Source: Myxococcota bacterium
GTDB taxonomy: Bacteria; Myxococcota_A; UBA9160; SZUA-336
DNA length: 64,000 nt
Reading direction: 5' to 3'
Assembly: GCA_046757685.1 (NCBI GenBank)
Contig: JBHHYV010000002.1
Location: forward strand, 8,598-72,597
In this document: positions 9,594-45,079 of the stretch, one piece after another
Layout of the letters: the number at the start of each line of letters is the position of its first letter
Position numbering within the stretch: the stretch's first letter is position 1
Made by a program: the position numbers and the translations under genes
The notes under the pieces: model-generated
Told to the model about the DNA's origin: nothing
What the model saw: only the letters and a program-made list of their open reading frames with translations
The model's database searches: none

Positions 9594-10865
9594 ATGCCAT
9601 GCCTCGAGGTCGATGTCTCGCGGAGCCGGATCCCGGCGAGCGAGCTCCGGCGCCTGCAGCCGCGGCTGCGCCGGGCATGGCGGGCGCTCGAGTCCGATCC
9701 CGCGGCCGGCTTCCTCGAGCTGCCCTCGCGCGTCACGCCCCTGCGCCAGCTGCGCGCGGCGGCCCGCGACCTCGCCGGGTTTCGCGACGGAGTCCAGCTG
9801 GGAATCGGAGGCAGCTCGCTCGGCGCCCAGGCGATCTACCGCGCACTCTCGTCGAGTGCCTCGAGCCCCGGAGTGCGGCTGCACTTCGCCGACAACGTGG
9901 ACCCACAGAGCTTTGGCGCGCTGCTCGATTCACTCTCTCCGCGGCGCACGCTCGTGCACGTCGTGAGCAAGTCGGGCGGGACCCTCGAGACGCTGGCCCA
10001 GCTACGCGCGCTGCTCCGGAACTTCAGCGCTCGCGATCCCCACTTTCGGATCCGGCGTCGGGCGATCGTGACGACCGGGGCCAGCGGTCCCCTGCGCGAG
10101 TTCGCGAGGCGCGAGGGCCTGCGAACCCTCGACTTTCCCGAGGACGTGGGGGGACGCTTCTCGGCACTGACGCCCAGCGGCCTGCTGCTCCCGGTCCTCG
10201 TCGGAATCCCGGTCCAGCGCATCCTCCGCGGCGCGCGGGACATGCGAGCGCGCTGCGCCGACGCTCCCGGCGCCGGCCCGGCCGGAGCGCTCGCGGCGCT
10301 CGGCTGGCTTCACGACCAGCGCCACCACAGGCCCATTCACGTGCAGTGGATCTACTCCGATGCCCTGCTCCCGATGGGCGAGTGGTTCCGCCAGCTCTGG
10401 GCCGAGAGCTTGGGCAAGGGGGGCCGCGGACCCACACCCATCGTCGCGCGAGGCACCACCGACCAGCACTCCCAGCTGCAGCTGCATGCGCAGGGTCCCG
10501 ACGACAAGCTCTACACGGTCCTGCGCGTGGCGCGGCGCACCCGACGAGTCCCGCTCGGCCCCGACCCGGGACTGATGGACGTCGGGGTGCGGGACCTCGG
10601 AGAGATCTTCGACGCGGAGGCCGGCGGAACCGTCGAGGCGCTCGTGGGAGCCGGTCGCCCGGTGGTCCAGCTCTGGCTCGAGCGGGTCTCTCCGGAAGGG
10701 CTCGGAGAGCTCCTGATGCTGCAGCAGCTGCAGACGGCCCTGGCCGGCGCCCTCTACGAGGTGGATCCCTTCGACCAGCCGGGTGTCGAGCTGGGCAAGC
10801 GCGCCGCCCTGAAGATCCTGCGCAAGGGCGCGGGCCGAGGGGCTAGCGGAAGTCCTGGGGCTTGA
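9594..10865 (+). CDS. pgi: Glucose-6-phosphate isomerase (short bacterial/archaeal-type PGI)
   Basis: In-frame ATG 9594 in ORF 9255..10865. Motifs GIGGSSLG, VSKSGGTLET and FDQPGVELGK. Confidence 0.85.
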   Translation: MPCLEVDVSRSRIPASELRRLQPRLRRAWRALESDPAAGFLELPSRVTPLRQLRAAARDLAGFRDGVQLGIGGSSLGAQAIYRALSSSASSPGVRLHFADNVDPQSFGALLDSLSPRRTLVHVVSKSGGTLETLAQLRALLRNFSARDPHFRIRRRAIVTTGASGPLREFARREGLRTLDFPEDVGGRFSALTPSGLLLPVLVGIPVQRILRGARDMRARCADAPGAGPAGALAALGWLHDQRHHRPIHVQWIYSDALLPMGEWFRQLWAESLGKGGRGPTPIVARGTTDQHSQLQLHAQGPDDKLYTVLRVARRTRRVPLGPDPGLMDVGVRDLGEIFDAEAGGTVEALVGAGRPVVQLWLERVSPEGLGELLMLQQLQTALAGALYEVDPFDQPGVELGKRAALKILRKGAGRGASGSPGA

Positions 10866-11823
10866 TCGAGTTGCGCCGCATCACGTCGTAGAAGTCCTTG
10901 CGGTCCTTCCGGGCGATGCGAGCGGCGCGGCTGATGTTACCCCGACACAGCCGCAGAAGGCGCGTGACGTACTCCCTCTCGAACGCTCGCTTGGCATCGC
11001 GGAAGGGGGGAACGGACGCATCCGAGTCCCACCCGAGCACCAGGTCCTCGAGCGCGATCTCGTTGCCCTTGGCCAGGTGCAGCGCGGCGCGGATCTGCTC
11101 GCGCAGCTCGCGTTCGTTGCCCGGCCAGCCGTAGGTGACGAGCCGCTCGATGGCCGCCGGCGAGAAGCCCCGCACGTTCGAGACCTGACCGGGCTCGCGC
11201 TCGATCTCGGCGCGCGCCAGGGCGAGCGCCTCGGCCGCCAGCGGCACGATGTCCTCGGGACGCTCCCGGAGCGGGGGCAGGACGATCTCGAGCAGCCCGA
11301 AGCGCTCGGCGAGCGGGCCGATCAGGTTCGGATCGCCCGCCGCGGCCTCGAGCCGAGTGCGGCCGGAGCCGATCAAGCGGCACTCGAAGGGCAGGGAGTC
11401 CTCCGCGCCGATCGGCCGGAAGTGCCCCTCCCCCAGGGCGACCGCGATGGTCTGCTGGACATCCTTGGGAACCGACTTCAGGTCCTCGACCAGGACCGTT
11501 CCGCCCGCGCAGCGCTCGAAGGCACCCGTGTAGCTGGCCGGCAGGGCGGGAATGGCGCCCTCCGCCGCGCCGAGCAGCTCGCGCCCCACGAGGGCGGGGG
11601 GGATGACTCCGGCGTCGAGCGCGAAGAAGCGCCCTCGGCTCCAGTCGCTCTCGGCGTGGATTCGCTGGGCCACGCGCTCCCGATCTGCGCCATCCTCACC
11701 CTGGATCCAGATCGGAAAGCGGCCCCGAGCGGCCACCGCGATCTGCTCCCGGGCGGTCTGGATCGCTCGGCTGGCGCCGATCAGCCGGGCCGGCATTCCC
11801 GTACGCTCATCGAGATTGGACAC
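10843..11823 (-). CDS. Sigma-54 activator-like (bEBP-type AAA+ plus Fis-type HTH) regulator with degenerate ATPase motifs
   Basis: ORF 10843..11823. AAA+ sigma-54-interaction domain recognisable (GGTVLVEDL...LPPLRERPEDIVPLA), but Walker A is GEDGADRE instead of GESGTGKE and the GAFTGA loop is replaced. C-terminal HTH RLCRGNISRAARIARKDRKDFYDVM. Start GTG 11823 or ATG 11796. Confidence 0.7.
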   Translation of the reverse strand: MSNLDERTGMPARLIGASRAIQTAREQIAVAARGRFPIWIQGEDGADRERVAQRIHAESDWSRGRFFALDAGVIPPALVGRELLGAAEGAIPALPASYTGAFERCAGGTVLVEDLKSVPKDVQQTIAVALGEGHFRPIGAEDSLPFECRLIGSGRTRLEAAAGDPNLIGPLAERFGLLEIVLPPLRERPEDIVPLAAEALALARAEIEREPGQVSNVRGFSPAAIERLVTYGWPGNERELREQIRAALHLAKGNEIALEDLVLGWDSDASVPPFRDAKRAFEREYVTRLLRLCRGNISRAARIARKDRKDFYDVMRRNSIKPQDFR

Positions 11824-12035
11824 TTCTCCCTCCTCTGGAGTAGCGCCCCGACCCCCGGAGTTCCAGGACGTACGAATGAGGGTCGATCAACCCAGTGCGC
11901 CCCCCAGGCAAAAAGTGGCGCACCTGCTTGGAATGTCAATAGAAAAGGACTGGTCGGGCCGATTTCCGCTCCCCCGTGCTAGGCTCCGGTGTGCGGGCTC
12001 CTCCCCCGGGGTGCGCCTTCCTCCAGCGAGACCCG

Positions 12036-13802
12036 ATGCCCCGAATCCGAGTGCTCCCCGACGATCTCGTCAACCAGATCGCCGCGGGCGAGGTGGTCGA
12101 GCGACCTGCCTCGGTCGTCAAAGAGCTGGTGGAGAACTCCCTCGATGCGGGCGCCACCCGGATCGAGGTCGCGATCCGCGACGGCGGGATCCGCTCGATC
12201 CGCGTCGCCGACGACGGGATCGGCATGTCGGCACCCGACGCCGCGCTCGCCTTCGAGCGCCATGCCACCAGCAAGCTTCGAGGCGCCGAGGAGCTGGGCG
12301 CGATCTCGAGCCTCGGGTTTCGCGGTGAGGCGCTCCCCAGCATCGCCAGCGTGGCGCGCGTGCGGCTCCAGACGCGCGTCGCCACGGAGCCTCTCGGCGT
12401 CGAGATCGTGGGGGAGGGCAGGGGAGTCGGGCCGCCCCGCCCCCTCGCCACTCCGCCGGGGACGCGGATCGAGGTCGCCGAGCTCTTCGAGCGGGTCCCC
12501 GCGCGTCGGAAGTTCCTGCGCACGCGAGCCACCGAGGCTCGCCACGTCGCGCTGTGGCTCGAGCGCATGGCTCTCGCGCGGCCCGACGTTCACTTCCACT
12601 TCGAGCGAGACGGACGCTCGGTGCTGGCTCTCTACCCGACGGCCGATCCGCGCGAACGCACGATCGCGGTCCTGCCGCCCGGTATCGGAGAGACCCTGAT
12701 CCCGATCGAGGCGGCGGCCTCGGGCCTGCGCGTCTCGGGCTTCGCCTCGCCTCCCCACCTGACCCGCGGAAGCCCGGGCGAGATCCATCTCTACGTCAAC
12801 GGCCGCCCGGTACGCGATCGCCTGCTGCTGCACGCCGTGCGCGACGCCTACCGCAACGCGCTGCCCCCCGGGCGTCATCCCATCGTCGTGCTCTTTCTCG
12901 CGGCACCCCGCGGGGAGGTCGACGTCAACGTGCACCCGGCCAAGTGGGAGGTGCGCTTTCGCGACTTCAGCGTGGTGCGCGCGCTGGTGCGGGGCGCCCT
13001 TGGAGGCGCGTTGCAGCTCGGGCCCCCGGCACCGCGGCGCCCGCTGCCCGCGCCCGACGCCCTCCTTCCTTCGCGCGAGGGCCCAGGCGACTGGAGCCTT
13101 CTCGGGGAGCCTGGAGCTGCGGCTCGCATCGAGCGGCCGGCAGATCGGGGCGAGGGGAGGCCGCCGCTCGAGTTCGCGCGGCTGCGCTTCGTCGGACAGC
13201 TGCTCCACAGCTACCTGGTCTGCGAAGGCGAGCGCGCGCTCGTCATCCTCGATCTTCACGCCGCACACGAACGCGTGCTCTTCGAGCGGATGCGGCGGAG
13301 TGTTGTGTCCGACAAGCTCGAGCGCCAGGCCCTGCTGCTGCCTCTGCAGGTTCCCCTGGCTCCGCGCGGAGCCGAGGCGCTGATGTCGGCACGCGCCGCG
13401 CTGGATCGAGCGGGCTTCGAGCTGGAGGCCCGCCCCCCGGACGCACGCGGCCGGGTGCCCGTCGTGCTCCGTAGCGTGCCGACCCTGCTCTCCCGGGACA
13501 CGGGCTCTACCTCGGCGCGAGAGCCCGACTGGGGCGCCATGCTCGAGGAGACGGCCGCGGTCCTCGCCAGCCCGGAGCCCGACGAGTCGCGCGACGGGAT
13601 CGAGCGCGCGTTGCACCGAGCGCTCTCGACGGCCGCTTGCCACGCGGCGGCCCGGAGCGGCGACCGACTCGACCCACGTGCGGTGGCGGCGCTCCTCGAG
13701 TCGCTCGACCAGGAGATCTGGGTTCCGACCTGTCCCCACGGTCGGCCTCTCGTCTGCGTGCTCGATCGGGCCGAGCTTGGGCGACACTTCCTGCGCCGGT
13801 AG
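12036..13802 (+). CDS. mutL: DNA mismatch repair protein MutL
   Basis: ATG 12036 in ORF 11976..13802. GHKL ATPase motifs (ELVENSLDAGA; DDGIGM) and a C-terminal dimerisation domain. Confidence 0.9.
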   Translation: MPRIRVLPDDLVNQIAAGEVVERPASVVKELVENSLDAGATRIEVAIRDGGIRSIRVADDGIGMSAPDAALAFERHATSKLRGAEELGAISSLGFRGEALPSIASVARVRLQTRVATEPLGVEIVGEGRGVGPPRPLATPPGTRIEVAELFERVPARRKFLRTRATEARHVALWLERMALARPDVHFHFERDGRSVLALYPTADPRERTIAVLPPGIGETLIPIEAAASGLRVSGFASPPHLTRGSPGEIHLYVNGRPVRDRLLLHAVRDAYRNALPPGRHPIVVLFLAAPRGEVDVNVHPAKWEVRFRDFSVVRALVRGALGGALQLGPPAPRRPLPAPDALLPSREGPGDWSLLGEPGAAARIERPADRGEGRPPLEFARLRFVGQLLHSYLVCEGERALVILDLHAAHERVLFERMRRSVVSDKLERQALLLPLQVPLAPRGAEALMSARAALDRAGFELEARPPDARGRVPVVLRSVPTLLSRDTGSTSAREPDWGAMLEETAAVLASPEPDESRDGIERALHRALSTAACHAAARSGDRLDPRAVAALLESLDQEIWVPTCPHGRPLVCVLDRAELGRHFLRR

Positions 13803-25591: not shown

Positions 25592-25781
25592 GGGATCCCT
25601 CCGGGCACGCGAAGCGAGGGCCCCGCGGTGCACTGGACCCCTCACCCCTCGTCCGTGAGTGGTCTCGGGGCCCGGCCGGGTGACGAGCTGCACCGGAGCT
25701 GCCGACGCCGCTCGGGAAAGAAGCCGCCGCAGCGGCATGTTGACAGCGGAGCGCTCGCGTTCCTATCCTCCCGCCCCTTGA

Positions 25782-25859
<78 letters not shown>

Positions 25860-25926: not shown

Positions 25927-26373
25927 TCACTCCGGCGCTCCGGCGCCCGGCACGTCCCCCCGGGCGCGAGCCGCCGCCGCCAGGAGCGCCGCGCGCATCG
26001 GGGAGACGTCGACCAGGGGATGCCTGCGAGCCCGCGCGACCTCGCTCTCGGAGTAGGGCCGGAAGTCCGGTGGAAGCGGCTCATCCGCGAACTCCTCGAG
26101 CAGCCAGTTCAGGAGCGCCGCGAGCCGACGGTCGCTTATGGCCGACTGGGCCGATCCCGGCACGCGGACCAGGTAGGCGCGCCCACCCGGGGCCCACAGG
26201 AAGCGGCCGATGGAGTGGACCAGCGACGGCACCCGCCCCGACATTCCGCTGCCATCCGCCTGGTGGCAGCCCATGCAGTGAAGCGCGTAGTCGAGTCGCG
26301 GCGAGGCGACACCCGAGGCGGGGACGGCCAGGCTGAGCGCCGCGACCCCGAACCGCATGACGCGACGGCGCAT
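25927..26373 (-). CDS. Monoheme c-type cytochrome (single CxxCH), putative electron acceptor of the amine dehydrogenase
   Basis: ORF 25927..26373. Signal peptide, then CMGCH. The start lies 1 nt after the mauA-like stop. Confidence 0.7.
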   Translation of the reverse strand: MRRRVMRFGVAALSLAVPASGVASPRLDYALHCMGCHQADGSGMSGRVPSLVHSIGRFLWAPGGRAYLVRVPGSAQSAISDRRLAALLNWLLEEFADEPLPPDFRPYSESEVARARRHPLVDVSPMRAALLAAAARARGDVPGAGAPE

Positions 26374-26374
26374 G

Positions 26375-26944
26375 CTAGCGCTCGGTCGCGACCCCGAGGA
26401 CGCGGGCCGTCGAGCAGTGGTAGGCCTGGCTCGCGGCCCCGACGCACCAGTTGATGTCGTTGCTCTTCGGGGCCACGTAGACCGGTCGGTCTCCCTCGTT
26501 GCGATTGCACAGGCAGCGTCCGCAGTAGCCCTTGCCGCAGCAGTCGTTGTACGAGATCACGTAGTCCCTGCCGTCCGCGGGGTTGCGACAGGTCCCGATC
26601 CAGGTGATCGGCGACATCTCGGTGCCCGGCGGGCAGCGGTCTGCACTTCCCCCGCAGCAGCCGCACAGGAACCCATCGATCGCGCAGTGCCTCCAGTAGT
26701 CGCAGCTCGTGGGGTCGGCCTGCGCGCCTCGGAGCCCGGACTCGTCGGGCGCCGGCTCCCTCGCGGCCCCGTGGGATGCCCCCTCTGCAGCCGCTCCGCG
26801 CGCGACGGGCAGGAGGGGGATCGTCGCCCCTCCAAGCAGGAGCGTCGCGGCCCGACCCAGAAAGCCCCGGCGCGAGGTGCGCTTCGCCAGGCTGCGCGAG
26901 GCCCCCTCGACCCAGCGATCGACCCGGCCGCGAAGTGTCGTCAT
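26375..26944 (-). CDS. mauA: TTQ-dependent amine dehydrogenase light (beta) subunit, MauA/AauA family
   Basis: ORF 26375..26944. Twin-arginine signal RRGFLGRAATLLLGGA. Signature CDYWRHCAIDG (Paracoccus MauA has CDYWRHCSIDG). Both TTQ-forming Trp conserved (ITWIGTC, DINWCVG). 12 Cys in the mature part. Confidence 0.85.
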   Translation of the reverse strand: MTTLRGRVDRWVEGASRSLAKRTSRRGFLGRAATLLLGGATIPLLPVARGAAAEGASHGAAREPAPDESGLRGAQADPTSCDYWRHCAIDGFLCGCCGGSADRCPPGTEMSPITWIGTCRNPADGRDYVISYNDCCGKGYCGRCLCNRNEGDRPVYVAPKSNDINWCVGAASQAYHCSTARVLGVATER

Positions 26945-27579
26945 CTGGCACCTCCCATCCGCAGACCCTCTCCCGGCGCTCGATCCGCCTTCCCCTGCAG
27001 GTACTCCTGAAGCGAGGCGAAGCCGCTCGCGCGCGCCTCGAGCAGGCTCTCGAGGTGCTCCCGAGAGTTCACGAGTCCCTGGGCGCGCAGGACGCCCTCG
27101 TCATCGATCAAAACCGCGTGCGGAAGCCGCGCCACGGAGTAGGCCAGGCCGAGATCGGTCGAGACCAGGTAGGGGAACTCCTCGAGGCGCTCGCGGCGCA
27201 CGAGCGCCTCGTGCTCGTCGCGGGGACCGTCGCTGGCCAGCCACACGCGCAGCCCGGCACGCTCGGATCGCGCGAGCGATCGCAGCACGGGCAGCAGCGA
27301 CTCGCAGACCGGACAGCTCGGCGAGAGAAAGAAGAGCAGCAGGTCGCGACCCGAGGGATCGCGGCCCCCCACCCGGCGAGCGACGCCGCCGAGGTCCTCG
27401 ACCGTGACCGTCGGTGCAGGCTCACCGGCGACCGGAGCGGCCCGAAGCGTCAGTGCGCCCGCGGGCGCGACGCGCTCGTGCAGCACCCCGACCTGACGCA
27501 CCAGCGCGAGGACCACTCCCGCGAGCACGACGACGGCGCCCCAGAGCAGGAGATTGGAGACGAGGAGAGCCCCGCTCAC
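26941..27579 (-). CDS. mauD: Methylamine-utilisation protein MauD-like (TlpA-type membrane-anchored thioredoxin, CPVC)
   Basis: GTG 27579 within ORF 26941..28071. TM helix LLVSNLLLWGAVVVLAGVVLALV, then LLFFLSPSCPVCESLLP. GTGA overlap with mauE and ATGA overlap with mauA. Confidence 0.75.
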   Translation of the reverse strand: MSGALLVSNLLLWGAVVVLAGVVLALVRQVGVLHERVAPAGALTLRAAPVAGEPAPTVTVEDLGGVARRVGGRDPSGRDLLLFFLSPSCPVCESLLPVLRSLARSERAGLRVWLASDGPRDEHEALVRRERLEEFPYLVSTDLGLAYSVARLPHAVLIDDEGVLRAQGLVNSREHLESLLEARASGFASLQEYLQGKADRAPGEGLRMGGAR

Positions 27580-28115
27580 GCCGGCCTCGCGCTCCGGGCA
27601 AGGGACCCCGCGTTCGCGGCCAGGCCGTGGATCGCGCTCCAGCTCGCGACCAGGACACACGCCGACCCGAGAACGCTCAGCACGTCGAGCCAGACGAGCG
27701 GGCGCGGATCCTGGGGAAGCCGGCAGGCGAGCGCGGCGGCGATCAGCGCGGCGTTGCGCCAGAGCAGCCAGCCGGCGAGGGTCGCGCGGGCCTGCGGGCC
27801 CGCACAGCCGCAGTCGATGTCGCGCCGGCCCCGAGCGAGGTTGAGCGCGATCGCCGCGGAGTAGAGGGAGAGCAGGCCCGCGACTCCGAGCAGCGCGATG
27901 GGGCGTCCCGCGGGCCACAGCAGGCCCGCGCCCAGCCCGAGCTCGGCCAGCGCGACCAGGGGTGCGAAGGCTCGGCTGAGCAGCGTCGGGAGCAGCCGAT
28001 AGTCCGCGAAGATTCGCCGGAAGCGCGGCAGGTCTCGCAGCTTCTCGACTCCGCTCGCGATCCACACCCACGCGAGCGCGCCACAGACCGAGAGCTGGAC
28101 CACCGGGTCGATCAC
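27576..28115 (-). CDS. mauE: Methylamine-utilisation protein MauE-like integral membrane protein
   Basis: ORF 27576..28115 (GTG start). Four predicted TM helices of about 180 aa. Position between the mauB and mauD homologues. Confidence 0.75.
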   Translation of the reverse strand: MIDPVVQLSVCGALAWVWIASGVEKLRDLPRFRRIFADYRLLPTLLSRAFAPLVALAELGLGAGLLWPAGRPIALLGVAGLLSLYSAAIALNLARGRRDIDCGCAGPQARATLAGWLLWRNAALIAAALACRLPQDPRPLVWLDVLSVLGSACVLVASWSAIHGLAANAGSLARSARPA

Positions 28116-29338
28116 GGCACCCTCAGCTGTCCGCCGGCGATTCCGATCTCGGGCACGTCCCGAAGGAACTCCCCGCTACGCGCGTCGAGCACCGCGAGCG
28201 TGGCGGGAAAGCTCGACTCCAGGAGCAGCAGCGGCTCGGGATCCTGGGTCACCACGATTCGGTCCGCGCCCGGGTTGGGCAGGAGCGCGCCCAGCAGCCA
28301 GCGGAGCAGTCCGTCTCTCCACCCCTCTGAGTCCATCCCCATCGCCCGTCCCAGGAACAGAACGGTCGGGTTCGGAGCCGCGATCCGCAGCTGGCGCCGG
28401 CGCGTCGCGAGGTCGTAGCCCCAGACCTCGGTCCCGGCCTGCTTGTGCGTGTCGGGACCTCCGCGATGGACCAGCACGAAGAGGCGCCCGGAGGGGCCGT
28501 GCACGGCCAGGTGCTGGGCTCCCCCGATCCTCCAGCCCGCGGGCCCGCCGGCCGCCTCCATCAGCGACCAGGGAGCGTCGAAGCGAAGGGAGTCCCCGGA
28601 GACGTCGACCCCGTGGATCACCCCCTCGAACGACACGAAGAGCCAGCGGCTCCCCCAGCGCGCGGCCTTCTCGGTCACGGGATCCCCGATGGGGTCGAAG
28701 AAGGGCGCGGATCGTCGCTTCGAGACCACCTGTCCGTGGGCGTCGAGAGAGACCGTCAGGGCGGCGCCGTCGCCACACAGCATCAGGAAGCGCCGGGGAC
28801 CCGCGGCGTAGACCAGGCTGCAGCCTGGAGTCTCGACGCGTCCCACGAACCTGCGCTCGCGCACGTCGACGATGCTGAGCGAGGTGGCCGGAGTCAGGTT
28901 GAAGACCGCCACGAACCGGCCGTCGTCCGAGAGGGCCGCTGTCGCGACACCCGAGGCGTGCTCGGCTCGCTCGGCGGGGATCCCGATCTCGGCGAGTGGG
29001 GCGAGGGTCGTGGAGTCGTAGATCGTCACGACGTCCGTTCGGGTGCCGCGTGTCCCACGGGCGTAGTAGGTCTCGGGCAGGTAGATCTCGCCGCGCTCCG
29101 CCGAGAAGAGCGGCACGATGTTCCCGAGACCCGAGCTCAGCATTCCCAGGAAACGGGGGCGGTCGGGATCCACGAGTGCCGTGCGATGGAGGATCACGTC
29201 CTCCACCCAGACCCAGTGCGCTCCCGGGGTGCGCGGCAGCACCTCCACCCGCTGCGGCGAGAGCGAGCCGGGCTGCGCCAGCGCGCCGCTCGTCCATCCG
29301 CTCACGACGAGCGCGCACCCCACGAGCCATCGCCGCAT
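28112..29338 (-). CDS. mauB: TTQ-dependent amine dehydrogenase heavy (alpha) subunit, MauB/AauB family (7-bladed propeller)
   Basis: ORF 28112..29338. Signal peptide. Overall collinearity with MADH heavy chain (VFNLTPATS, CGDGAALTV, and GW/AYH blocks). Confidence 0.8.
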   Translation of the reverse strand: MRRWLVGCALVVSGWTSGALAQPGSLSPQRVEVLPRTPGAHWVWVEDVILHRTALVDPDRPRFLGMLSSGLGNIVPLFSAERGEIYLPETYYARGTRGTRTDVVTIYDSTTLAPLAEIGIPAERAEHASGVATAALSDDGRFVAVFNLTPATSLSIVDVRERRFVGRVETPGCSLVYAAGPRRFLMLCGDGAALTVSLDAHGQVVSKRRSAPFFDPIGDPVTEKAARWGSRWLFVSFEGVIHGVDVSGDSLRFDAPWSLMEAAGGPAGWRIGGAQHLAVHGPSGRLFVLVHRGGPDTHKQAGTEVWGYDLATRRRQLRIAAPNPTVLFLGRAMGMDSEGWRDGLLRWLLGALLPNPGADRIVVTQDPEPLLLLESSFPATLAVLDARSGEFLRDVPEIGIAGGQLRVP

Positions 29339-29440
29339 GACGCCTTCCGTCCCCCCCAGGCGACGCGATCATAGCCCGAGCGGGGGCCCGCTCGCAGGCG
29401 GGGCGCGAGCGGGGAGATGGGAGAGAGGCGACCTCCGGGA

Positions 29441-31798
29441 TCAGCGGAGCTGGCGGCGGACGGCCTCGATCAGCTCGGCGCAGGAGAAGGGCTTGCGGAG
29501 ATGGTCGTCATAGCCCGCCTCGAGGCAGCGCTCGCGCACGCCGGCCAGCGTCTCGGCCGTGAGCGCGACGAGGGGACCCGCGTAGCCGCTCTCGCGCAGC
29601 TTCCGGGCCGCGGTCCAGCCGTCCATCGAGGGCATCTTCAGGTCCATCAGCAGCAGGTCCCAGGGACGCCCGGAGGGCGTACCGGAGCGCGCCCGCTCGA
29701 GCCCCTCCGCGCCGTCCGAGGCGACGCCGACCTCGAGCCCCGCCTTCTCGAGAAAGGTCTGGATGAGCTTCTGGCACAGCGGATCGTCCTCGACGACCAG
29801 CACGCGGCCGCCGAGGCGACCGAGCGTGGCCGGCTGGCACCGGTTCGCGTGCAGCGAGCGCGCGAGATCCTCCGGACTCTCGAGCCGCTCCACCCCCTCG
29901 AGCGAGCCCGTGGCAACCGTGACCCGGAAGATGCTGCCGCGGCCCGGCACGCTCGAGACCCTGATGCCGCCTCCCAGCAGATCCGCGAGCAGGACCGAGA
30001 TGGCGAGCCCCAGCCCCTCGCCCCCGGAGTCCGACCTGGAGGCCTGTGCGAGGTCGACGGGACGGAAGAGCCGATCGAGATGGTCGGGCTCGATTCCGAT
30101 CCCGGTGTCGGAGACCTCGACCCGCAGCAGCGACGGTCGGCCCTTCTCTTCCTCGAGCTGCGCAGAGACCGTCACGCCCCCACGTCGAGTGAACTTGATG
30201 GCGTTGTCGATCAGGTTCACCAGGATCTGGCGCAGGCGCAGCGGATCGGACTCGATCCTCGCGGGGAGAGGGCCGTGGAGCCGGGCCTCGAGGGCCAGGC
30301 CCTTCCGCTCGGCGATCCCGCACATCACCTCGACGACCTCCCCGATCACTGCGCAGGGCGAGAAGCACTTTCGCTCGATCGTCAGTCGATTGGACTCGAG
30401 GCTCGAGAGGTCGATCACGTTGTCGACCAGCGCGATCAGCTGGCGGGTGCTCCGGCGGATGGTCCGGGCGTGCTCGAGCCGCTCCGCGGAGCCCGCGGCG
30501 GGATCGAGGATCAGCTCGGCATGGCCCATGGCCACGCTCAGGGGGGCTCGGATCTCGTGGCTCAGGTGGGCGATGAAGCGCTGCCTGGCGAGATCCGCCG
30601 CGCGCGCCTCCTCGACGGCTCTCTTCAGCTCTCCGGCCATCGCGTTGAAGGACTCTCCGAGGTCGCGAATCTCGTCCCGCCCGCGTAGGGTCACGCGCGC
30701 CTCCAGCTGGCCCCGCTCTACCTGGCCCATGGCGTCGCGCAGGTTCCCGATCCGGCGCGAGACGTTGCGAAACAGGCCGAGCCCCAGGAGCACGGCGATC
30801 CCCAAGGCCGCTCCCGCCCCGACGATGAGCTCGCGCGTGACGCGCTCGATCGGAGCGAACGCCCGCTCGACCGGGCTCTGCCGCAGAACCAGCCATCCCA
30901 GGCCGCCCATCCGGGCCCACGCCGTGAACACCGGGACCCGTCCGTCCCCTCCCCCGCCGCAGACGAAGCCCCCCGAGGAGGCCGACGCCGCGATTCGATC
31001 CAGACAGCCGGGCAGCGTGACCTTGATGGGCGCTCCAGATCCGTCCGGCGGATCATCGATGACCCCGCCGCTGCGCCCGGCGAGGCGGAGCGTCCACCCC
31101 GACTCCGCCGCACCCTCGCGGTCGGCGAGCGTGCGGCGGGCGAACCCGATGTCGAGGACCGCCTTGAGGACCCCCAGGAAGCGGCCCTGGTCGTCGTCGA
31201 CCCGGATGCACAGCTCGGTCGACAGCGACCGGGCGCTCTCGTCCCAGCTGATGTCGCCGATGAAGATCCCCTGCTCACGAGCGCGCTGCCACCAACGTTC
31301 GTCGTCCTGGCGAAAGTCTGTCGTCATTCCCGTCTGCCCGACGTTGATCCCGAAGCGGTTGGTCACGAAGACCTCGCCGTAGACGCGGTAGCCCTCCTGT
31401 CGCTCGAGGGCGTCCGTCTCAGCGCGCAGGAGCTTCGAGAGGGGAGCCTCGGAGATTCGGCGAGCCAGGGATGGCGGATGCAGGGGGTCGGCGCTTCGCC
31501 ACTCGCGATCCGCCGCGTCGATCCAGGATCGAAGCTGCGGGCGGCGCTCGGTCTCCTCGTTCGAGGCGACGAGGGCCTTCTGGAACTCCGGAGAGCGCGC
31601 GAGCAGCCGCCAACCCTGCTCCCGATCGTGCAGGACCCGTTCGATCTCGGCGATCGCCTCGCTCGCGACCCGCTCGGCGTTGGCCTCGATCGAGGCCCGC
31701 AGAGCCCGGCGCGCCAGGTGGATGGAGTAGCCGGCGACCCCCGCGACCAGCAGAGCGGTCAGCGAGATGGCGAGTGCCAGCTTGTGTCCGATCGTCAC
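29441..31798 (-). CDS. Hybrid sensor histidine kinase (periplasmic sensor domain-HAMP-HisKA-HATPase-REC)
   Basis: ORF 29441..31798. Two TM segments flank a periplasmic domain of about 280 aa. H-box HLSHEIRAPLS. N/G-boxes LIDNAIKFT, SDTGIGI, GGEGLGLAI. C-terminal receiver (VLVVEDDP...DLLLMDLKMP). Confidence 0.85.
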   Translation of the reverse strand: MTIGHKLALAISLTALLVAGVAGYSIHLARRALRASIEANAERVASEAIAEIERVLHDREQGWRLLARSPEFQKALVASNEETERRPQLRSWIDAADREWRSADPLHPPSLARRISEAPLSKLLRAETDALERQEGYRVYGEVFVTNRFGINVGQTGMTTDFRQDDERWWQRAREQGIFIGDISWDESARSLSTELCIRVDDDQGRFLGVLKAVLDIGFARRTLADREGAAESGWTLRLAGRSGGVIDDPPDGSGAPIKVTLPGCLDRIAASASSGGFVCGGGGDGRVPVFTAWARMGGLGWLVLRQSPVERAFAPIERVTRELIVGAGAALGIAVLLGLGLFRNVSRRIGNLRDAMGQVERGQLEARVTLRGRDEIRDLGESFNAMAGELKRAVEEARAADLARQRFIAHLSHEIRAPLSVAMGHAELILDPAAGSAERLEHARTIRRSTRQLIALVDNVIDLSSLESNRLTIERKCFSPCAVIGEVVEVMCGIAERKGLALEARLHGPLPARIESDPLRLRQILVNLIDNAIKFTRRGGVTVSAQLEEEKGRPSLLRVEVSDTGIGIEPDHLDRLFRPVDLAQASRSDSGGEGLGLAISVLLADLLGGGIRVSSVPGRGSIFRVTVATGSLEGVERLESPEDLARSLHANRCQPATLGRLGGRVLVVEDDPLCQKLIQTFLEKAGLEVGVASDGAEGLERARSGTPSGRPWDLLLMDLKMPSMDGWTAARKLRESGYAGPLVALTAETLAGVRERCLEAGYDDHLRKPFSCAELIEAVRRQLR

Positions 31799-31966
31799 GT
31801 CGGCGTCTCCAGAGGGGTCCGAGCTTCCGCCCGGAAGCCAGGACGCGCGGGCCCTTCCCGCTGGGTTCGGCGGGGCCCGCAGCGACCTTGAGAGACGCGG
31901 TGCACACGAGCGCCAGCGGCACCCGACCCCGCGAAGAGCGGATCCGGCGCCTCTCGCTCGGGACGC

Positions 31967-32419
31967 TCAGTCGCGAGCGGGATCGCGTGGATCGAGGCGC
32001 ATGATGAAGGGCCCTCCCATCCATCCGCGGAAGGGCGCGAGCAGCCGATCGGGGAGTCCGTACTTGGCGCGCAGAGTCGAGACGACGCGCGCCACCTGCG
32101 CCGGGTCGGTCACATCGGTGGCCCGCATCGGATACCACTGCCCTGCGATCTGCACCGTGATGTCGCGGTTCCGGACGATGTTCGCCCTCCAGCGCGTGCT
32201 GCCGGTCCGGATGTAGCCGTTCCCATCGACGACGGCGAGCCAGATCGTGGTCTCGCGAAGCGGGCCGTCCGGATCGTGCGTCCGCAGCTGGATGGTCTGC
32301 TGATCCGCCACGCGACCCCACTCGCCGATGCCGGCCGGGGCCGCCCCGATCGAGAGCGCGGCGAGCCCCGCGAGCCAGCACCCGAGAGCCGCAGCCCGTC
32401 CTGTCCGTTCGTGGACCAT
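31967..32419 (-). CDS. Secreted DUF385/nitroreductase-fold-like small protein
   Basis: ORF 31967..32419. Signal peptide. Similarity to the deazaflavin-dependent nitroreductase/DUF385 split-barrel (TTIWLAVVDGNGYIRTGS...VTDPAQVARVVSTLRAKY). Family assignment tentative. Confidence 0.45.
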   Translation of the reverse strand: MVHERTGRAAALGCWLAGLAALSIGAAPAGIGEWGRVADQQTIQLRTHDPDGPLRETTIWLAVVDGNGYIRTGSTRWRANIVRNRDITVQIAGQWYPMRATDVTDPAQVARVVSTLRAKYGLPDRLLAPFRGWMGGPFIMRLDPRDPARD

Positions 32420-32476
32420 CCCGGCAGTCTACCCTCACGCAGCCCCGGGCGGAGGCAGTGGAGATTCCGCCCCAAG

Positions 32477-32947
32477 CTAGCGAGAGCGCGAGGCGAGCTG
32501 GTGAGCCACGATGGTCCCCGCGACGATCAGCGCCAACGCCCCCGGTGGAACCAGCAGGATCGCGGGATTCGGATCTCCGCCGAAGACGACGACCCCCCCG
32601 AGCAGGAACCCGGCAGGCATCAGGACCGTCGCAGCGATCAGGGCGCCGGAGGCCAAGCTCCGCGCGGCGGCCGAGAAGCGGCTGCCCTCGGCCCGGAGCG
32701 TCGCCGCGAAGGCGAGGTTGACCAGCCCGAGCAGGACCCCGTGGGCGTGCGCGAGGGTCCAGAGCTCCCTGCGCGTGGCGTTCGCGAGATCGAGGTACCA
32801 GCCGACCTTGAACCCGTTCAGGGTCTCGAGGGTCAGACCGAGCCCGGCGAAGAGGGACAGCGCGACCCAGCCCACCAGCAGGTGGCGCCCGACGACGCCG
32901 TCCGGCCTCGCTCCCGTCTGCGTGCGCCCCGGAGCCCGAGCCGCCAT
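32477..32947 (-). CDS. Hypothetical integral membrane protein (4 TM)
   Basis: ORF 32477..32947. The ATG overlaps the stop of the upstream octaheme cytochrome gene (ATGA). Confidence 0.55.
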   Translation of the reverse strand: MAARAPGRTQTGARPDGVVGRHLLVGWVALSLFAGLGLTLETLNGFKVGWYLDLANATRRELWTLAHAHGVLLGLVNLAFAATLRAEGSRFSAAARSLASGALIAATVLMPAGFLLGGVVVFGGDPNPAILLVPPGALALIVAGTIVAHQLASRSR

Positions 32948-34794
32948 CAGTCCGGGTACCAGATGGGCCGCTCATCGCGATCGCGGACCAGCTGCGCGGC
33001 CGCGGCGTGATCGAAGCGGCCCTCCGGATCGATCAGCAGCCGGGATCCCACGCTGTGGCGCTTGGGATCGGCGGACCAGCGCCGCAGCACCGCCCTCGCC
33101 GCATCCTCACGCGCCGGGACCGGTCCCGCGAAGTCGTAGCGCAGGCCCGCGTAGCCGGGAATCTGACGCAGCGAGTGAAAGGCCACCGACCGATCGACGT
33201 CGTAGGGGTCGACGAGTCCCTGCGCCAGGATCGGCGGCATCCAGTCCCGACCCGAGGCCTGCTGTGCCGGCCGCCAGCCCATCGCCCAGGTCGCGATGCC
33301 GCGCTGGCCGGCCTCGCCGGAGAGCGCCCAGACGATGGACGCCGCCACCTGGCGATCGCGCTCGGCGAGCGGCGGCGGAGCCGTCCCGTACCACTGCTCG
33401 AGCCAGCGGGCCGTCCAGCTCAAGCTCCGGTCGAGATGGCACAGGTTGCACGCGTTGGGGCGACCGAGATCCACGCTCTCCTGCACCGTCGGGCTCGAGA
33501 CGCGATGGCTGCGCGTGGCCTTGTGGAGCCCGAACGAGGTGAAGGGCATGTGGCAGTGGGTGCAGGCCGATCCCGGCGATGGGGCCGGATGATGGGAGTG
33601 CCGGGCGCGCGCGCGCGCATCCGCGAAGCGAGCGTGGCAGGCCAGACAGGCGCGTCCCGTGCGCGCCCCGGGCCGGAGCTGATCGTCGGCCCAGACGTCG
33701 AGGGGCCGCGCATCGTCGGACCCGCGGTGCATGCGGTGGCAGGTCGTGCACGTGAACTCGCCGCTCGCAAAGCAGGGGGATGCGAGCACGTCCTGGTACT
33801 CCCGTCCACCGACCCGCAGCGCGCCATCCGGCCAGAAGCGCGTGACCTCGGCAAGCTGGTTGTGATCGAGCAGACGCACGCGATCGAAGAAGCTCGGGTC
33901 ACCCGGCCGATAGCTGGAGCCGCGCTCGAGCCAGCGCCGCTTGTCCTCGGGTCCCAGGAAGGTCCAGGGGCTGTGACACTGGGCACAGACCTGCATCTGC
34001 GCCTCGGGATCGAGTCGCCCCGGATTGACGATCGTGGGATCCGGGCGGTCCCGCACCTCGAGCCCGATGCGGCGCAAGGGGTTGCGATTGACCCGGACAT
34101 GCTCGCCGCCGGGACCGTGGCAGGCCTCGCATGCGATCCCGAACTCGGCCGCTCGCGTATCCACCCGATCGCCCATCGCCCGGGGCTGCCCCCGCACGGC
34201 GTGACAGCCCACACAGATGGTGTTCCACTCGCTTCCGCGCCCGTGCACCCGGGTTCCCGGGGGCACCAGCACGACCGAGTCGAAGGGCACCCAGCGCCGC
34301 TCGGCGACCTGCCAGGCGTGCGCGAAGAGGTCGATGCGTCGGCTCTCGCCCGACTCGAGCCAGTACGCCTGGAAGTGGTGCGAGCCGGTCGTCATCACCA
34401 CCCGTCGCTCGACGGCGGGAGTGTCCGCGGAGGACGACGTGGACCTTCGGACGACCCAGTACTGGTCTCCCCTTCGCTCGACGCGCACGCGCTCCCCTGC
34501 GTATGCGAGCTCTCGCCCATCGAAGCGGGCGAGGACCGAGTCCGGGGAGGCCTCCTGGGTCATGCGGCGGTGATAGGAGGCGCGCCAGGTCGCGTACTCG
34601 CGCGGATGACACGCCTGGCAGGCGCTCGAAGAGACGTAGCCATCGGAGTGGACCTCGAGGGGACGCGTCCGGACCTCGGGCTCGGAGAGGCGCAGGGGCC
34701 AGCGGTAACCCAGCGCGAGCAGGCTGCCGGTCGCCAGCAGGGCCGCGACCAGCACGAGGATCCCGACCCGGCGAGGTGTGGGATCAGCTGCCAC
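32947..34794 (-). CDS. Membrane-anchored octaheme c-type cytochrome
   Basis: ORF 32947..34794. N-terminal TM anchor. Eight CxxCH motifs: CQACH, CVGCH, CEACH, CAQCH, CTTCH, CLACH, CTHCH, CNLCH. Confidence 0.8.
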   Translation of the reverse strand: MAADPTPRRVGILVLVAALLATGSLLALGYRWPLRLSEPEVRTRPLEVHSDGYVSSSACQACHPREYATWRASYHRRMTQEASPDSVLARFDGRELAYAGERVRVERRGDQYWVVRRSTSSSADTPAVERRVVMTTGSHHFQAYWLESGESRRIDLFAHAWQVAERRWVPFDSVVLVPPGTRVHGRGSEWNTICVGCHAVRGQPRAMGDRVDTRAAEFGIACEACHGPGGEHVRVNRNPLRRIGLEVRDRPDPTIVNPGRLDPEAQMQVCAQCHSPWTFLGPEDKRRWLERGSSYRPGDPSFFDRVRLLDHNQLAEVTRFWPDGALRVGGREYQDVLASPCFASGEFTCTTCHRMHRGSDDARPLDVWADDQLRPGARTGRACLACHARFADARARARHSHHPAPSPGSACTHCHMPFTSFGLHKATRSHRVSSPTVQESVDLGRPNACNLCHLDRSLSWTARWLEQWYGTAPPPLAERDRQVAASIVWALSGEAGQRGIATWAMGWRPAQQASGRDWMPPILAQGLVDPYDVDRSVAFHSLRQIPGYAGLRYDFAGPVPAREDAARAVLRRWSADPKRHSVGSRLLIDPEGRFDHAAAAQLVRDRDERPIWYPD

Positions 34795-36950: not shown

Positions 36951-37027
36951 GGACGATTAGCTCAGCTGGCTAGAGCGCTGCGTTGACATCGCAGAGGTCA
37001 CTGGTTCAAGTCCAGTATCGTCCACCA
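36951..37027 (+). tRNA. tRNA-Val (GAC)
   Basis: GGACGATTAGCTCAGCTGGCTAGAGCGCTGCGTTGACATCGCAGAGGTCACTGGTTCAAGTCCAGTATCGTCCACCA. Anticodon loop TTGACAT. TATACT -10-like hexamer at 36934-36939 upstream. Confidence 0.85.
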
Positions 37028-41678: not shown

Positions 41679-44600
41679 TCAGTGGAGATCCTGGCGCTGG
41701 CGCCGCGCGTCGAGTCGAGCGAGCAGCTGTGTGGCGAGGCGCCCGATCCGGGACAGCGCACCCCCCTTCGCCACCTCGAGGGCGAGCGCGGCCTGGCGGG
41801 CTGCGGAGGCGGAGTCCCCCGCCCGCTCGGAGGCGACGCCGGCATCGACCCAGGCTGCCGCAGAGATCCTCCGCAGCCCCTGGGCCTGGGCGCGCTCCGC
41901 GCAGCGCTCGAAGCGCGGGGGAGCGGCCATCGGATCGGCGCCCGGCTCCGCGGCGGCGGCGCGCGCCTCGGCCAGCTCCGTCAGGGTCTCGCGCAGCTGC
42001 CCCGCCGCCCACTCTCGCGCCACCTCGACCGCCCGGGCCGCCTCGGCCGGGCGACCCACCGCGAGCAGCGCCTCGACGACCAGGTCCGCCTCGAAGGCGA
42101 TGTCGCTCCCGCGGGAGATCTCTTCGCACAGCCCGTCGAGGTGCCGGGTGTCCGCCGGAAGGCCCCGCGCAGCGTCCGCGAGCAACGCGATGGCGTTCGC
42201 CGTGCGCCGCGTCGGAAGCAGGTCGTACTCGCGAGCGATCGCCAGGGCCTGCTCCGCCAGCACAGCCGCGCGCTCGGGATCGTCCCCCTCGAGGGCGAGC
42301 CGCGCCAGGCGCGCCAGCGACGTGGCCTGGACCGAGCGGTTCGGTGCCTGCTCGGCGCAGCGAAGGGTCTCGCGGGTCTCGCTCTCCGCGCTCGCGAGCT
42401 CTCCCGCGAGCGAGAGCGCGCGATCGCGATAGGCCCTCGCCGTGACGTAGAGATCGGTCTGGGCATCGCGCTCGCCCAGCGCCGCGAGACCGTCGACCAC
42501 CTCGCCGAGCAGGCGCCGGGCCTCGTCGATGCGGGAGTCGAGCAGGTACGCCCATCCCAGCTGCCGGCCCATCCGCAGAGCCGGGAGTGCGGAGTCCTCC
42601 GCCTGCGCAATCTGGCTCGCTCTCTCGATCAGACCCAGTCCCTCGCTGAAGCTCCCCGGCAGGTTGCACAGCTCCGTGCCCCGTTGCGCCAGGAGCTCCG
42701 CCAGCGAGACCGGGTCCCGGAGCTCCTCGGCCAGCGCGACGCCGCGCTCGAAGGCATCGTCGCTCTCGGGTCCCGAGCCCCGGGTGAGGGCGCGCGCCCT
42801 CGAGACGCCGATCGCCGCCTCGAGCGCGGCGCGGCGGTCCGCCTCGGACTGGACTCCGCCCGCGAGCAGCCACTCCCGCGCGAGCGTCCAGGCCTGGGTC
42901 CGAAAGCGAAAGGCGGTGGTGAACGCCGGGATCGCCTCGGCCTCGAGCGCGGCCACGAGCAACGCGCGAACCGCGCGCGGACGGTCGTCGCTGCGCGACC
43001 AGTGGTGGGCCAGCAGCGCGGCGCGCTCGGGTGTCTTGCCCGCCGGGTCCCCCTCCACGAAGCGCGCCAGCTGCGCATGCAAGCGCCGGCGCTCGCGAAG
43101 CAGCAGGCTCTCGTAGGCCACCTCCTGGGTCAGGCTCTCGCCGAAGCGATAGACCCCCTCCCCCAGCTCGCGGCGCGGATAGACGATTCCCCGGCCCTCG
43201 AGCAGCGAGAGCTGCTGCGACACGTCGACCCCGCTGCCCATGAGAAGATGCTCGAGCTCCTGGGTGCGAAACTGTCGGCCCGCCACGGCCGCCGTCTGCG
43301 CCAGGCGCTTCGCCGTCGCCGGCAGCCGGTCGAGGCGCGCCCCGAGGAGCTCGTGGACGCTGCTCGGGATGGGGATCTCGTCGACCGGCCGCGCGGTGCG
43401 CATCCGCCCGTCCTCCACGACCAGGTCACCGGCCTCCAGGACCGCCCGGGTCAGCTCTTCGGCGTAGAAGGGATTGCCCTCCGCCTTGGCGACGAGGCGG
43501 GCCCGAAGCTCGGCCGGGACCTCGGCTCCCGCAACCGCGTCGACGATCTCTCCGATGTGGGCGTCCGCGAGCGCACCCAGGTTCAGCTGCGTGAACGCCG
43601 AGCGGGTCTCCCACCGCGGCCGGTAGTCGGGACGGTGCGACACGACCAGGAGGATCCGCCCCCCCTCGATCCTCGCGGCCGCCATCTCCAGGTCGTGGCG
43701 GGAGTCCTCATCGATCCAGTGCAGGTCCTCGAGCACCAGGACCACGGGTCCGCGGTCGGCCAGCCCGGTGATCAGGCGCTCGACCGCGCGAAAGCTCGCC
43801 CGCCGCAGCTCGTCTCTCGAGCCCTCCGGCGGCTCCCCGCGATCGATCGAGAGCATGCGGCACAGGTAGGGGGCGATCTCGGTGCCATCCGGATCCCACT
43901 CCGAGACGCCGTCCCGGACGCGTTGCTCGCGAGCCTCGGCGGAGTCGTCGGGCTGGATTCCGAAGTGATTCTCGAGCATCCGGATCCACACGTAGTCCGG
44001 AACCGAGCTCGCGAGCGAGGAGCAGCGCGCCTCCAGGATCGTCGCTCCGCGGGACGCGGTCCGTCGCTTGAACTCGTGGACCAGGCGGGACTTGCCGCTT
44101 CCCGCCTCACCGACGATGGCCACCATCTGTGTCAGGCCGGCACCGACGCGGGTGAAGCTGTCCTCGAGCTGGCCCAGGTACGCCTCGCGACCGATGAAGG
44201 GAGTGAGCGCCTGACCGGAGGCGGCATCCGGCTCCCTCTGGCCCAGCACCCGATAGGCCCGCACCCGCTCGCTGCGGCCCTTGAGCCGGACCGGCCCTAC
44301 GAGCTCGAGCGAGAAGCGCCCGCCGAGCAGCCGCTGCGTGCTCTCGCTGATCCAGATCGTCCCCGGGTCCGCCAGCGACTCCAGGCGCGAGGCGAGATTC
44401 GTCGTGTCTCCGATCGCGGTGTAGTCCGTCTTGGCCTCGCTCCCGACGGTGCCCACGACGGCGAGGCCGGTATGGATGCCGATCCGCGCCTCGAGCGGAT
44501 GCTCCCCCGTCGCGCCCGCCAGGAGGCGACGCTGGATCGCGAGCGCCGCCGACACCGCCCGCGCAGGCGAGTCCTCGCGCGCGATCGGTGCGCCGAAGAG

Positions 44601-44996
44601 CGCCATGACCCCGTCCCCCGTCAGCTGGTTGACGACCCCCCCGGCCGCTTCGATCTCGCTCATCACGCTCTCGAGGTAGCGCCCGAGCAGCTCGCGGTAC
44701 TCCTCGGGGTCGAGGGGCTCCGCGATCCCGGTCGAGTTCGCGAGATCGCAGAAGAGGACCGTGACCTGCTTGCGCTCCCCCGCCGCAGGCTCGCCCGGAG
44801 AGCGCCGCGCGGCCCGCGCCTGCGGCCCGGCCGGGCCCGCGTCCGTCGAAGCCCGCGACCCGCACTCCGGACAGAACCGGAAGTGCGCTTCGAGAGCCGC
44901 GCCGCACTGTGCGCAGCGGCGGCCCACCGGCTCGCCACAGCTGGGGCAGAAGCGCATGCTCCGAAGCAGGGGGGCGCCGCAGCTCGGGCAGTCCAT
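41679..44996 (-). CDS. Multidomain signalling protein: double zinc ribbon, class III adenylate/guanylate cyclase, AAA/STAND NTPase, TPR array
   Basis: ORF 41679..45005. ATG at 44996 (MDCPSCGAPLL...CPSCGEP...CAQCGA...CPECGS). Cyclase motifs FCDLANSTG and GDGVMALFG. P-loop GEAGSGKS. Long TPR/helical C-terminus. Confidence 0.85.
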   Translation of the reverse strand: MDCPSCGAPLLRSMRFCPSCGEPVGRRCAQCGAALEAHFRFCPECGSRASTDAGPAGPQARAARRSPGEPAAGERKQVTVLFCDLANSTGIAEPLDPEEYRELLGRYLESVMSEIEAAGGVVNQLTGDGVMALFGAPIAREDSPARAVSAALAIQRRLLAGATGEHPLEARIGIHTGLAVVGTVGSEAKTDYTAIGDTTNLASRLESLADPGTIWISESTQRLLGGRFSLELVGPVRLKGRSERVRAYRVLGQREPDAASGQALTPFIGREAYLGQLEDSFTRVGAGLTQMVAIVGEAGSGKSRLVHEFKRRTASRGATILEARCSSLASSVPDYVWIRMLENHFGIQPDDSAEAREQRVRDGVSEWDPDGTEIAPYLCRMLSIDRGEPPEGSRDELRRASFRAVERLITGLADRGPVVLVLEDLHWIDEDSRHDLEMAAARIEGGRILLVVSHRPDYRPRWETRSAFTQLNLGALADAHIGEIVDAVAGAEVPAELRARLVAKAEGNPFYAEELTRAVLEAGDLVVEDGRMRTARPVDEIPIPSSVHELLGARLDRLPATAKRLAQTAAVAGRQFRTQELEHLLMGSGVDVSQQLSLLEGRGIVYPRRELGEGVYRFGESLTQEVAYESLLLRERRRLHAQLARFVEGDPAGKTPERAALLAHHWSRSDDRPRAVRALLVAALEAEAIPAFTTAFRFRTQAWTLAREWLLAGGVQSEADRRAALEAAIGVSRARALTRGSGPESDDAFERGVALAEELRDPVSLAELLAQRGTELCNLPGSFSEGLGLIERASQIAQAEDSALPALRMGRQLGWAYLLDSRIDEARRLLGEVVDGLAALGERDAQTDLYVTARAYRDRALSLAGELASAESETRETLRCAEQAPNRSVQATSLARLARLALEGDDPERAAVLAEQALAIAREYDLLPTRRTANAIALLADAARGLPADTRHLDGLCEEISRGSDIAFEADLVVEALLAVGRPAEAARAVEVAREWAAGQLRETLTELAEARAAAAEPGADPMAAPPRFERCAERAQAQGLRRISAAAWVDAGVASERAGDSASAARQAALALEVAKGGALSRIGRLATQLLARLDARRQRQDLH

Positions 44997-45079
44997 CGAG
45001 CCCAAAGACTCGCCACGCGAGGGCTCGCGTCAAGCTCGGCGCGGCTCACACAGGCCCCGTCGCGAAGAGGCGACGGCCC

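Follow-up and report, generated by a model that had tools for sequence, protein, structure and literature searches.

The gene clusters closest to the locus described here encode amine dehydrogenases that carry tryptophan tryptophylquinone (TTQ). In the mau cluster of Paracoccus and Methylobacterium (mauFBEDACJG) the genes for the heavy chain (mauB) and the light chain (mauA) of methylamine dehydrogenase (MADH) stand on either side of mauE and mauD. The aau cluster, which encodes aromatic amine dehydrogenase (AADH), was reportedly described by Chistoserdov in 2001 for A. faecalis as aauBEDA followed by orf2, the gene for a monoheme cytochrome, without mauF or mauG. The same order of heavy chain, MauE, MauD, light chain and small monoheme cytochrome c is present in the aau cluster of Achromobacter insolitus. 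The locus under study lies at positions 25927-34794 of a 64,000-nt stretch of DNA (the window) from a Myxococcota bacterium (assembly GCA_046757685.1, contig JBHHYV010000002.1, positions 8,598-72,597) and contains nine open reading frames (ORFs), all on the minus strand. In an earlier, sequence-only reading these were taken as one amine-sensing and amine-oxidising 'super-cluster', built on a mau core and served by an unusual electron acceptor. Comparison with other genomes and metagenomes indicates that the region is probably a juxtaposition of independent units, namely a five-gene operon of the aau type, a gene pair for an octaheme cytochrome and its membrane partner, and a kinase gene and a gene for a 150-aa protein that lie between the two. 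The features, in order of position, are as follows.

25927-26373, minus strand: monoheme cytochrome c, 148 aa, one CxxCH, periplasmic
26375-26944, minus strand: TTQ light chain (mauA), 189 aa; PF02975, 175 bits
26941-27579, minus strand: MauD; TIGR02661, 202.3 bits (cut-off 188.6)
27576-28115, minus strand: MauE; PF07291, 95.5 bits
28112-29338, minus strand: TTQ heavy chain (mauB), 408 aa, Sec-type signal peptide; PF06433, 115 bits
29441-31798, minus strand: hybrid histidine kinase with HAMP, HisKA, HATPase and REC domains
31967-32419, minus strand: 150-aa PNPOx/DUF2255-like protein, matches below threshold
32477-32947, minus strand: 156-aa multi-pass membrane protein, no Pfam family
32947-34794, minus strand: membrane-anchored octaheme cytochrome c, 615 aa, eight CxxCH

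The coordinates, the common strand and the spacing of the nine genes were confirmed, and the MauB, MauE, MauD, MauA and hybrid kinase assignments of the sequence-only reading passed profile searches; the CxxCH counts of eight and one likewise agree with an octaheme and a monoheme cytochrome. Stop/start overlaps were read directly from the sequence: mauB and mauE are joined by GTGA, mauE and mauD by GTGA, and mauD and mauA by ATGA. The stop codon of mauA (TAG) is followed by a single base and then by the ATG of the cytochrome gene, and the tight coupling proposed for the last five genes, from mauB to the cytochrome, is correct. The junction between the octaheme and membrane-protein genes had been given as ATGA; it reads TGATG, a 1-nt overlap. 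Wider gaps separate the membrane-protein gene from the 150-aa gene (57 nt), the 150-aa gene from the kinase (168 nt) and the kinase from mauB (102 nt).

The first unit (25927-29338) would be a translationally coupled five-gene operon for a periplasmic TTQ primary-amine dehydrogenase of the aau type. The heavy chain lies well above the PF06433 cut-off (115 bits vs 21) and, when compared with PDB entries, scored 157 bits against AADH of Alcaligenes faecalis and 107 bits against MADH. The mature light chain scored 158.7 bits against AADH and ∼130 bits against mature MADH light chains; the exception to this AADH-first ranking was the precursor-length MADH entry 3c75_L, which reached 176 bits over its full length. 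Against the MADH equivalog models the heavy chain was far below the cut-off (TIGR02658, 113 bits; cut-off 454) and the light chain was also below it (TIGR02659, 182.7 bits; cut-off 196.85). Both TTQ tryptophans of the light chain (in ITWIGTC and DINWC) align with those of AADH and MADH, and the motifs of its active-site aspartates (YNDCCG and AIDGF) match the AADH/MADH motifs in the alignment. The light chain begins with a twin-arginine signal (SRRGFLG) and has 14 cysteines in its mature part, as in AADH. Use of the cysteine number as a marker of AADH was considered and rejected as not diagnostic (44 cytochrome-linked light chains have 14 and 28 have 12). By these scores the window enzyme is assigned as a TTQ amine dehydrogenase that is nearer to AADH than to MADH; because both subunits miss the equivalog cut-offs, it does not appear to be a methylamine dehydrogenase proper. 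It differs from the described aau enzymes in its host, which belongs to the Myxococcota and not to the Betaproteobacteria, and in its heavy chain, which shares no more than 39% identity with the AADH orthologue of Achromobacter and whose last ∼85 residues fall outside the alignment.

MauE is a membrane protein with a CGC (CXC) motif, and MauD has a membrane-anchored thioredoxin fold with a CPVC motif. Both motifs agree with the recent proposal that MauE and MauD form a DsbB/DsbA-like pair (bioRxiv 10.64898/2026.03.05.709764), which is also the source for the CXC motif and the DsbB-like role of MauE. MauE is probably the DsbB-like oxidant through which the disulfides of the light chain form. 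In the mechanism proposed for the operon, the light subunit would be exported via the Tat pathway and its disulfides would be formed by DsbB-like MauE and the thioredoxin-like MauD (CPVC). The two conserved tryptophans would then be converted to the TTQ cofactor, and the heavy beta-propeller subunit would complete an enzyme that oxidises a primary amine, with an aldehyde and ammonium as products. The c552-like monoheme cytochrome would most probably pass the electrons on to the respiratory chain.

The operon and the mau clusters both have the B-E-D-A core and the accessory proteins MauE and MauD, both rely on TTQ chemistry, and in both the light chain is exported by the Tat pathway. The operon differs from the mau clusters in that mauA is followed by a cytochrome gene and not by a cupredoxin gene, and in that mauF, amicyanin (mauC) and mauG are all missing from the 64 kb of the window. 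Pfam scans of ∼50 ORFs across the window returned no mauF and no match to CCP_MauG. Neither Pfam scans nor a scan for the type-1 copper motif revealed a cupredoxin (amicyanin or azurin) in the 64 kb, and the only ORFs with CxxCH in coding frames over the same distance are the octaheme and monoheme cytochromes.

Relatives of the heavy chain numbered at least 1769 (E <= 1e-10) among 8000 candidates scored. The 120 relatives listed are 54-64% identical to the window protein, and most of them derive from metagenomes of Myxococcota, Binatia and 'Deltaproteobacteria'. Six annotated metagenome loci were compared, and in all six the genes for the heavy chain, MauE, MauD and the light chain occur in the same order and are followed by a gene for a 140-192-aa protein. 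These small closing proteins align well and have CxxCH in common. The flanks differ, although L002, L004 and L005 have one upstream neighbourhood in common.

Genomes were then scanned, one per species, with an alignment of the small cytochrome alone as the query, and relatives were found in 439 species genomes. Counts given below for genome loci refer to the best 80 loci (L012-L091) of these 439 positive genomes, with the cytochrome match near position 10001 in most. Of the 80, 76 have a light-chain gene, which by the listed coordinates precedes the cytochrome gene, and where a locus offered enough sequence it almost always showed the full order of heavy chain, MauE, MauD, light chain and cytochrome. 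The sources include cultured Achromobacter, Phenylobacterium, Haliea and Arhodomonas. The heavy chain of Achromobacter insolitus (L081) scored 433 bits against PDB 2h3x_A and is a true orthologue of AADH; its AADH cluster closes with a member of the same cytochrome family, 54% identical to that of the window, and an AraC regulator follows. None of the 80 loci has a MauG-like diheme ORF within 10 kb. MauE and MauD are absent from between the subunit genes, or are found elsewhere in the locus, in six cases (L038, L039, L042, L053, L078 and L084), and the B-E-D-A order is therefore not universal.

Taken from this comparison, the order heavy chain, MauE, MauD, light chain, monoheme cytochrome represents the standard layout of a TTQ cluster of the aau, or aromatic-amine-dehydrogenase, type. 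Given the conserved order and the lack of MauG within 10 kb in the 80 loci, a cytochrome in the amicyanin position and a missing mauG would be the norm for clusters of this type. The B-E-D-A order had been read as a mau core with an unusual acceptor, and the monoheme cytochrome as a non-canonical substitute for amicyanin; neither description survives the layout of the 80 loci, the Achromobacter AADH cluster, or a cytochrome with relatives in 439 genomes that is accompanied by a light-chain gene at nearly all of the loci inspected. The core is thus best described as a new member, from the Myxococcota, of a known type of operon, the aau type, with ∼39% identity to AADH.

The second unit (32477-34794) would be an autonomous octaheme cytochrome of the OcwA/MccA/NrfA fold class together with a small membrane protein. 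The large cytochrome has exactly eight CxxCH motifs and an N-terminal membrane anchor, and its heme-motif regions match NrfA-type models. Its homologues numbered 4319, with Planctomycetota, Myxococcota, Phycisphaerae and Thermoanaerobaculia among the source names seen. An AF2 model was obtained with a pLDDT of 87, and the closest solved folds were OcwA of Thermincola (E = 6e-10) and MccA of Wolinella (E ∼1e-2), although TM scores against the nearest folds were only 0.27-0.56 and the identity was about 15%. In the predicted structure the anchor is followed by an extra beta-sandwich, an OcwA/MccA-like heme core and C-terminal helical repeats. The N-terminal anchor, the beta-sandwich, the helical-repeat domain and the dedicated small membrane partner distinguish it from OcwA and MccA.

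The 156-aa membrane partner has conserved LAHAHG and GGDP motifs and aligns with genes downstream of octaheme homologues in two loci (L009 and L010). A contig scan with an octaheme alignment gave 80 metagenome loci (L092-L171, the octaheme loci), 62 of which have a homologue of the membrane partner; of the 66 loci with enough space for such a gene, 49 have it immediately downstream and in the same orientation. The mau genes, the small cytochrome, the kinase sensor and the 150-aa protein were found in none of the 80 octaheme loci. The octaheme cytochrome and the membrane protein are accordingly described here as a separate and widespread two-gene module.

Between the two units lie the kinase and the 150-aa protein, which have no demonstrable tie to either. 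The kinase consists of a transmembrane segment, a periplasmic sensor of ∼300 aa, a second transmembrane segment and then HAMP, HisKA, HATPase and REC domains. The sensor gave only a partial match of 11 bits to dCache_1 (PF02743); eight of the nine sensor relatives in a ten-protein scan match this model at 21-42 bits (cut-off 45). The sensor family (residues 1-345) comprises 2692 representative clusters, in which the domain is joined to outputs of many kinds, kinases and PAS modules among them. The representative search gave only paralogues, the best of them 39% identical, and the metagenome contig scan contained no close relative. The sensor is plausibly a divergent dCache-like domain for small molecules; to assign it to amines, or to link the kinase to the octaheme cytochrome, would be a guess. 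No response regulator or Hpt partner was found near the kinase in Pfam scans of the window.

The 150-aa protein matched DUF2255 with 27.6 bits (cut-off 29.8), TIGR03666 with 27.9 bits and F420H2_quin_red with E = 0.023. The sequence-only reading had called it DUF385-like, a label that keeps weak support from the F420H2_quin_red match and from a DUF2255 match that falls short of its cut-off. The protein has an N-terminal hydrophobic segment. This points to export or to anchoring in the membrane, an unusual location for a split-barrel-like fold that is mostly cytoplasmic.

At the 80 genome loci, tblastn with the sensor of the kinase, the 150-aa protein, the 156-aa membrane partner and the octaheme cytochrome as queries gave no match, and the annotated gene lists of the six metagenome loci contain no histidine kinase or multiheme cytochrome. 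A kinase or receiver domain of any kind lies within 10 kb at only 8 of the 80 genome loci. The proposal that the nine genes form a 'super-cluster' that acts as a unit is thus contradicted by co-location in 0 of 80 genome loci by tblastn, in none of the gene lists of the six metagenome loci and in 0 of 80 octaheme loci, and the kinase and the octaheme pair are, on present evidence, to be regarded as unrelated neighbours of the operon.

No Pfam model covers the family of the small monoheme cytochrome. An AF2 model (pLDDT 88.6) was compared with the PDB; the best match was cytochrome c552 of Thermus thermophilus (PDB 1c52; E ∼5e-4, TM 0.56-0.63), and the cytochrome subunits of membrane dehydrogenases came next. 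The profile of the family aligns with c552 in two separate pieces (E = 4e-20), and the CxGCH motif, the GGREYL motif and the C-terminal helices are common to c552 and the window cytochrome. The two differ in c552 residues 50-70, a loop of ∼21 residues that is replaced in the cytochrome family by three residues, an invariant Pro-Gly and one variable position. This segment of c552 carries the axial heme ligand Met69. Apart from the CxxCH histidine, no conserved Met, His or Lys, and no other conserved ligand, was seen across 81 cytochrome sequences. The small cytochrome is therefore presented as a predicted c552 homologue that lost the loop with the methionine ligand, and its heme may be open or unusually ligated. 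Because of its electron-carrier fold and its place in the operon, the role of electron acceptor is considered the likeliest.

Several observations weigh against independent units and a plain electron-carrying cytochrome. All nine genes are co-directional. The 102-nt spacer between the kinase and mauB has no recognisable terminator or sigma-70 promoter, so that read-through transcription, and hence co-transcription, is formally possible. At four gammaproteobacterial loci of one clade (L050, L068, L072 and L079) the cytochrome gene is followed, at ∼10400-12500, by a kinase and a response regulator unrelated to the kinase of the window. The closest heavy chain shares 64% identity with that of the window and has different flanks; as the comparison included no close relative of this lineage, it leaves room for a lineage-specific functional link. 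The lack of the usual methionine ligand is odd for a plain electron carrier. A hairpin in the kinase-mauB spacer was considered as a terminator and was rejected, being no stabler than shuffled sequence (z = −0.19).

Of the alternatives, the one that survives best is that the kinase alone is tied to the dehydrogenase operon as a recruited, lineage-specific regulator, with the octaheme pair unrelated; it is considered unlikely. The kinase gene and mauB share a strand and are 102 nt apart, with the kinase gene upstream, its periplasmic sensor is dCache-like, and regulators do adjoin the operon elsewhere, as with AraC in Achromobacter and the kinase and response regulator of the four gammaproteobacterial loci. 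Against this stand the lack of a homologous sensor beside any related operon in the 80 loci, the lack of a nearby response regulator or Hpt partner, and a large sensor family that is combined with many types of output and in which the best match is only 39% identical.

Doubtful to a greater degree is the view that the small cytochrome is not, or not solely, an acceptor and instead acts in cofactor maturation in place of MauG. Clusters without a MauG-like diheme gene, both in the window and within 10 kb at the 80 related loci, and a cytochrome gene that adjoins the light-chain gene in nearly all of those loci would fit such a role, and the deleted methionine loop without a conserved Met, His or Lys substitute (81 sequences) suggests an open heme face. 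MauG chemistry, however, needs two hemes, the fold of the cytochrome is that of an electron carrier, and heme ligation cannot be revealed by sequence alone. MauG-family genes are also widespread and could sit elsewhere in these genomes (bioRxiv 10.64898/2026.03.05.709764). In its more specific form, in which the aau-type cytochrome is no plain carrier but a reactive heme protein with an open face and a part in TTQ maturation, replacing MauG or alongside it, the idea is held with equally low expectation. If true, it would account for clusters without mauG and for the position of the cytochrome gene beside the light-chain gene.

The weakest alternative, that all nine genes form one amine-sensing and amine-oxidising respiratory module, with the kinase as amine sensor and with electrons that pass from the dehydrogenase by way of the monoheme cytochrome to the octaheme cytochrome and the membrane protein, is very improbable, since its support from nine same-strand genes with short gaps, a dCache-like small-molecule-binding sensor and the lack of a terminator-like site inside the cluster is set against no co-occurrence in the 80 genome and six metagenome loci, nor in the reverse direction in the 80 octaheme loci, against an octaheme pair that is self-standing across many phyla, and against co-directionality being weak evidence by itself.

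The genes that most often accompany the operon at the 80 genome loci encode a TonB-dependent receptor (at 12 loci) and an aldehyde dehydrogenase (at 8); in Gammaproteobacteria they lie upstream of the operon (L013, 3051-7103). In Achromobacter (L081) a Phenol_MetA_deg outer-membrane channel gene and the AraC regulator gene lie at 6045-6926 and 10542-11501; the window operon differs in having neither an AraC regulator nor an outer-membrane channel gene adjacent to it. These lineage-specific neighbours of the related operons are compatible with amine catabolism and its control. No synteny was found between the flanks of the window and those of the related loci.

The rest of the window carries housekeeping genes (mutL, miaA, der, tgt, a ROK kinase gene, efp, mutS, glnD, an xerC-like gene and scpAB), and its GC content is 70-73% throughout. 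A tRNA-Met gene lies on the plus strand at 25782-25858, separated by 68 nt from the end of the small cytochrome gene; a tRNA-Val gene lies at 36951-37027. A sigma-70-like promoter (TTGACA, 18 nt, TATCCT) is located just upstream of tRNA-Met (the two together at 25740-25858) and is the sole promoter-like site found; within the nine-gene cluster there were no promoter-like or terminator-like sites. A genomic island was considered and rejected: the 11 kb between the tRNA genes are without att-like direct repeats, the GC content is uniform and there is no integrase nearby. The gene at 41679-45005 encodes a 1108-aa protein in which double zinc ribbons occur together with an adenylate/guanylate cyclase domain and with an ATPase domain of the AAA_16 (STAND-like) kind.

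The apparent super-cluster would thus be a chance neighbourhood and gives no basis for inferring a new pathway of amine respiration. The octaheme cytochrome and its membrane partner constitute a very common two-gene module. Operons of the aau type are distributed far beyond the few cultured Betaproteobacteria from which they were described, occurring also in Myxococcota, Binatia and many Gammaproteobacteria.

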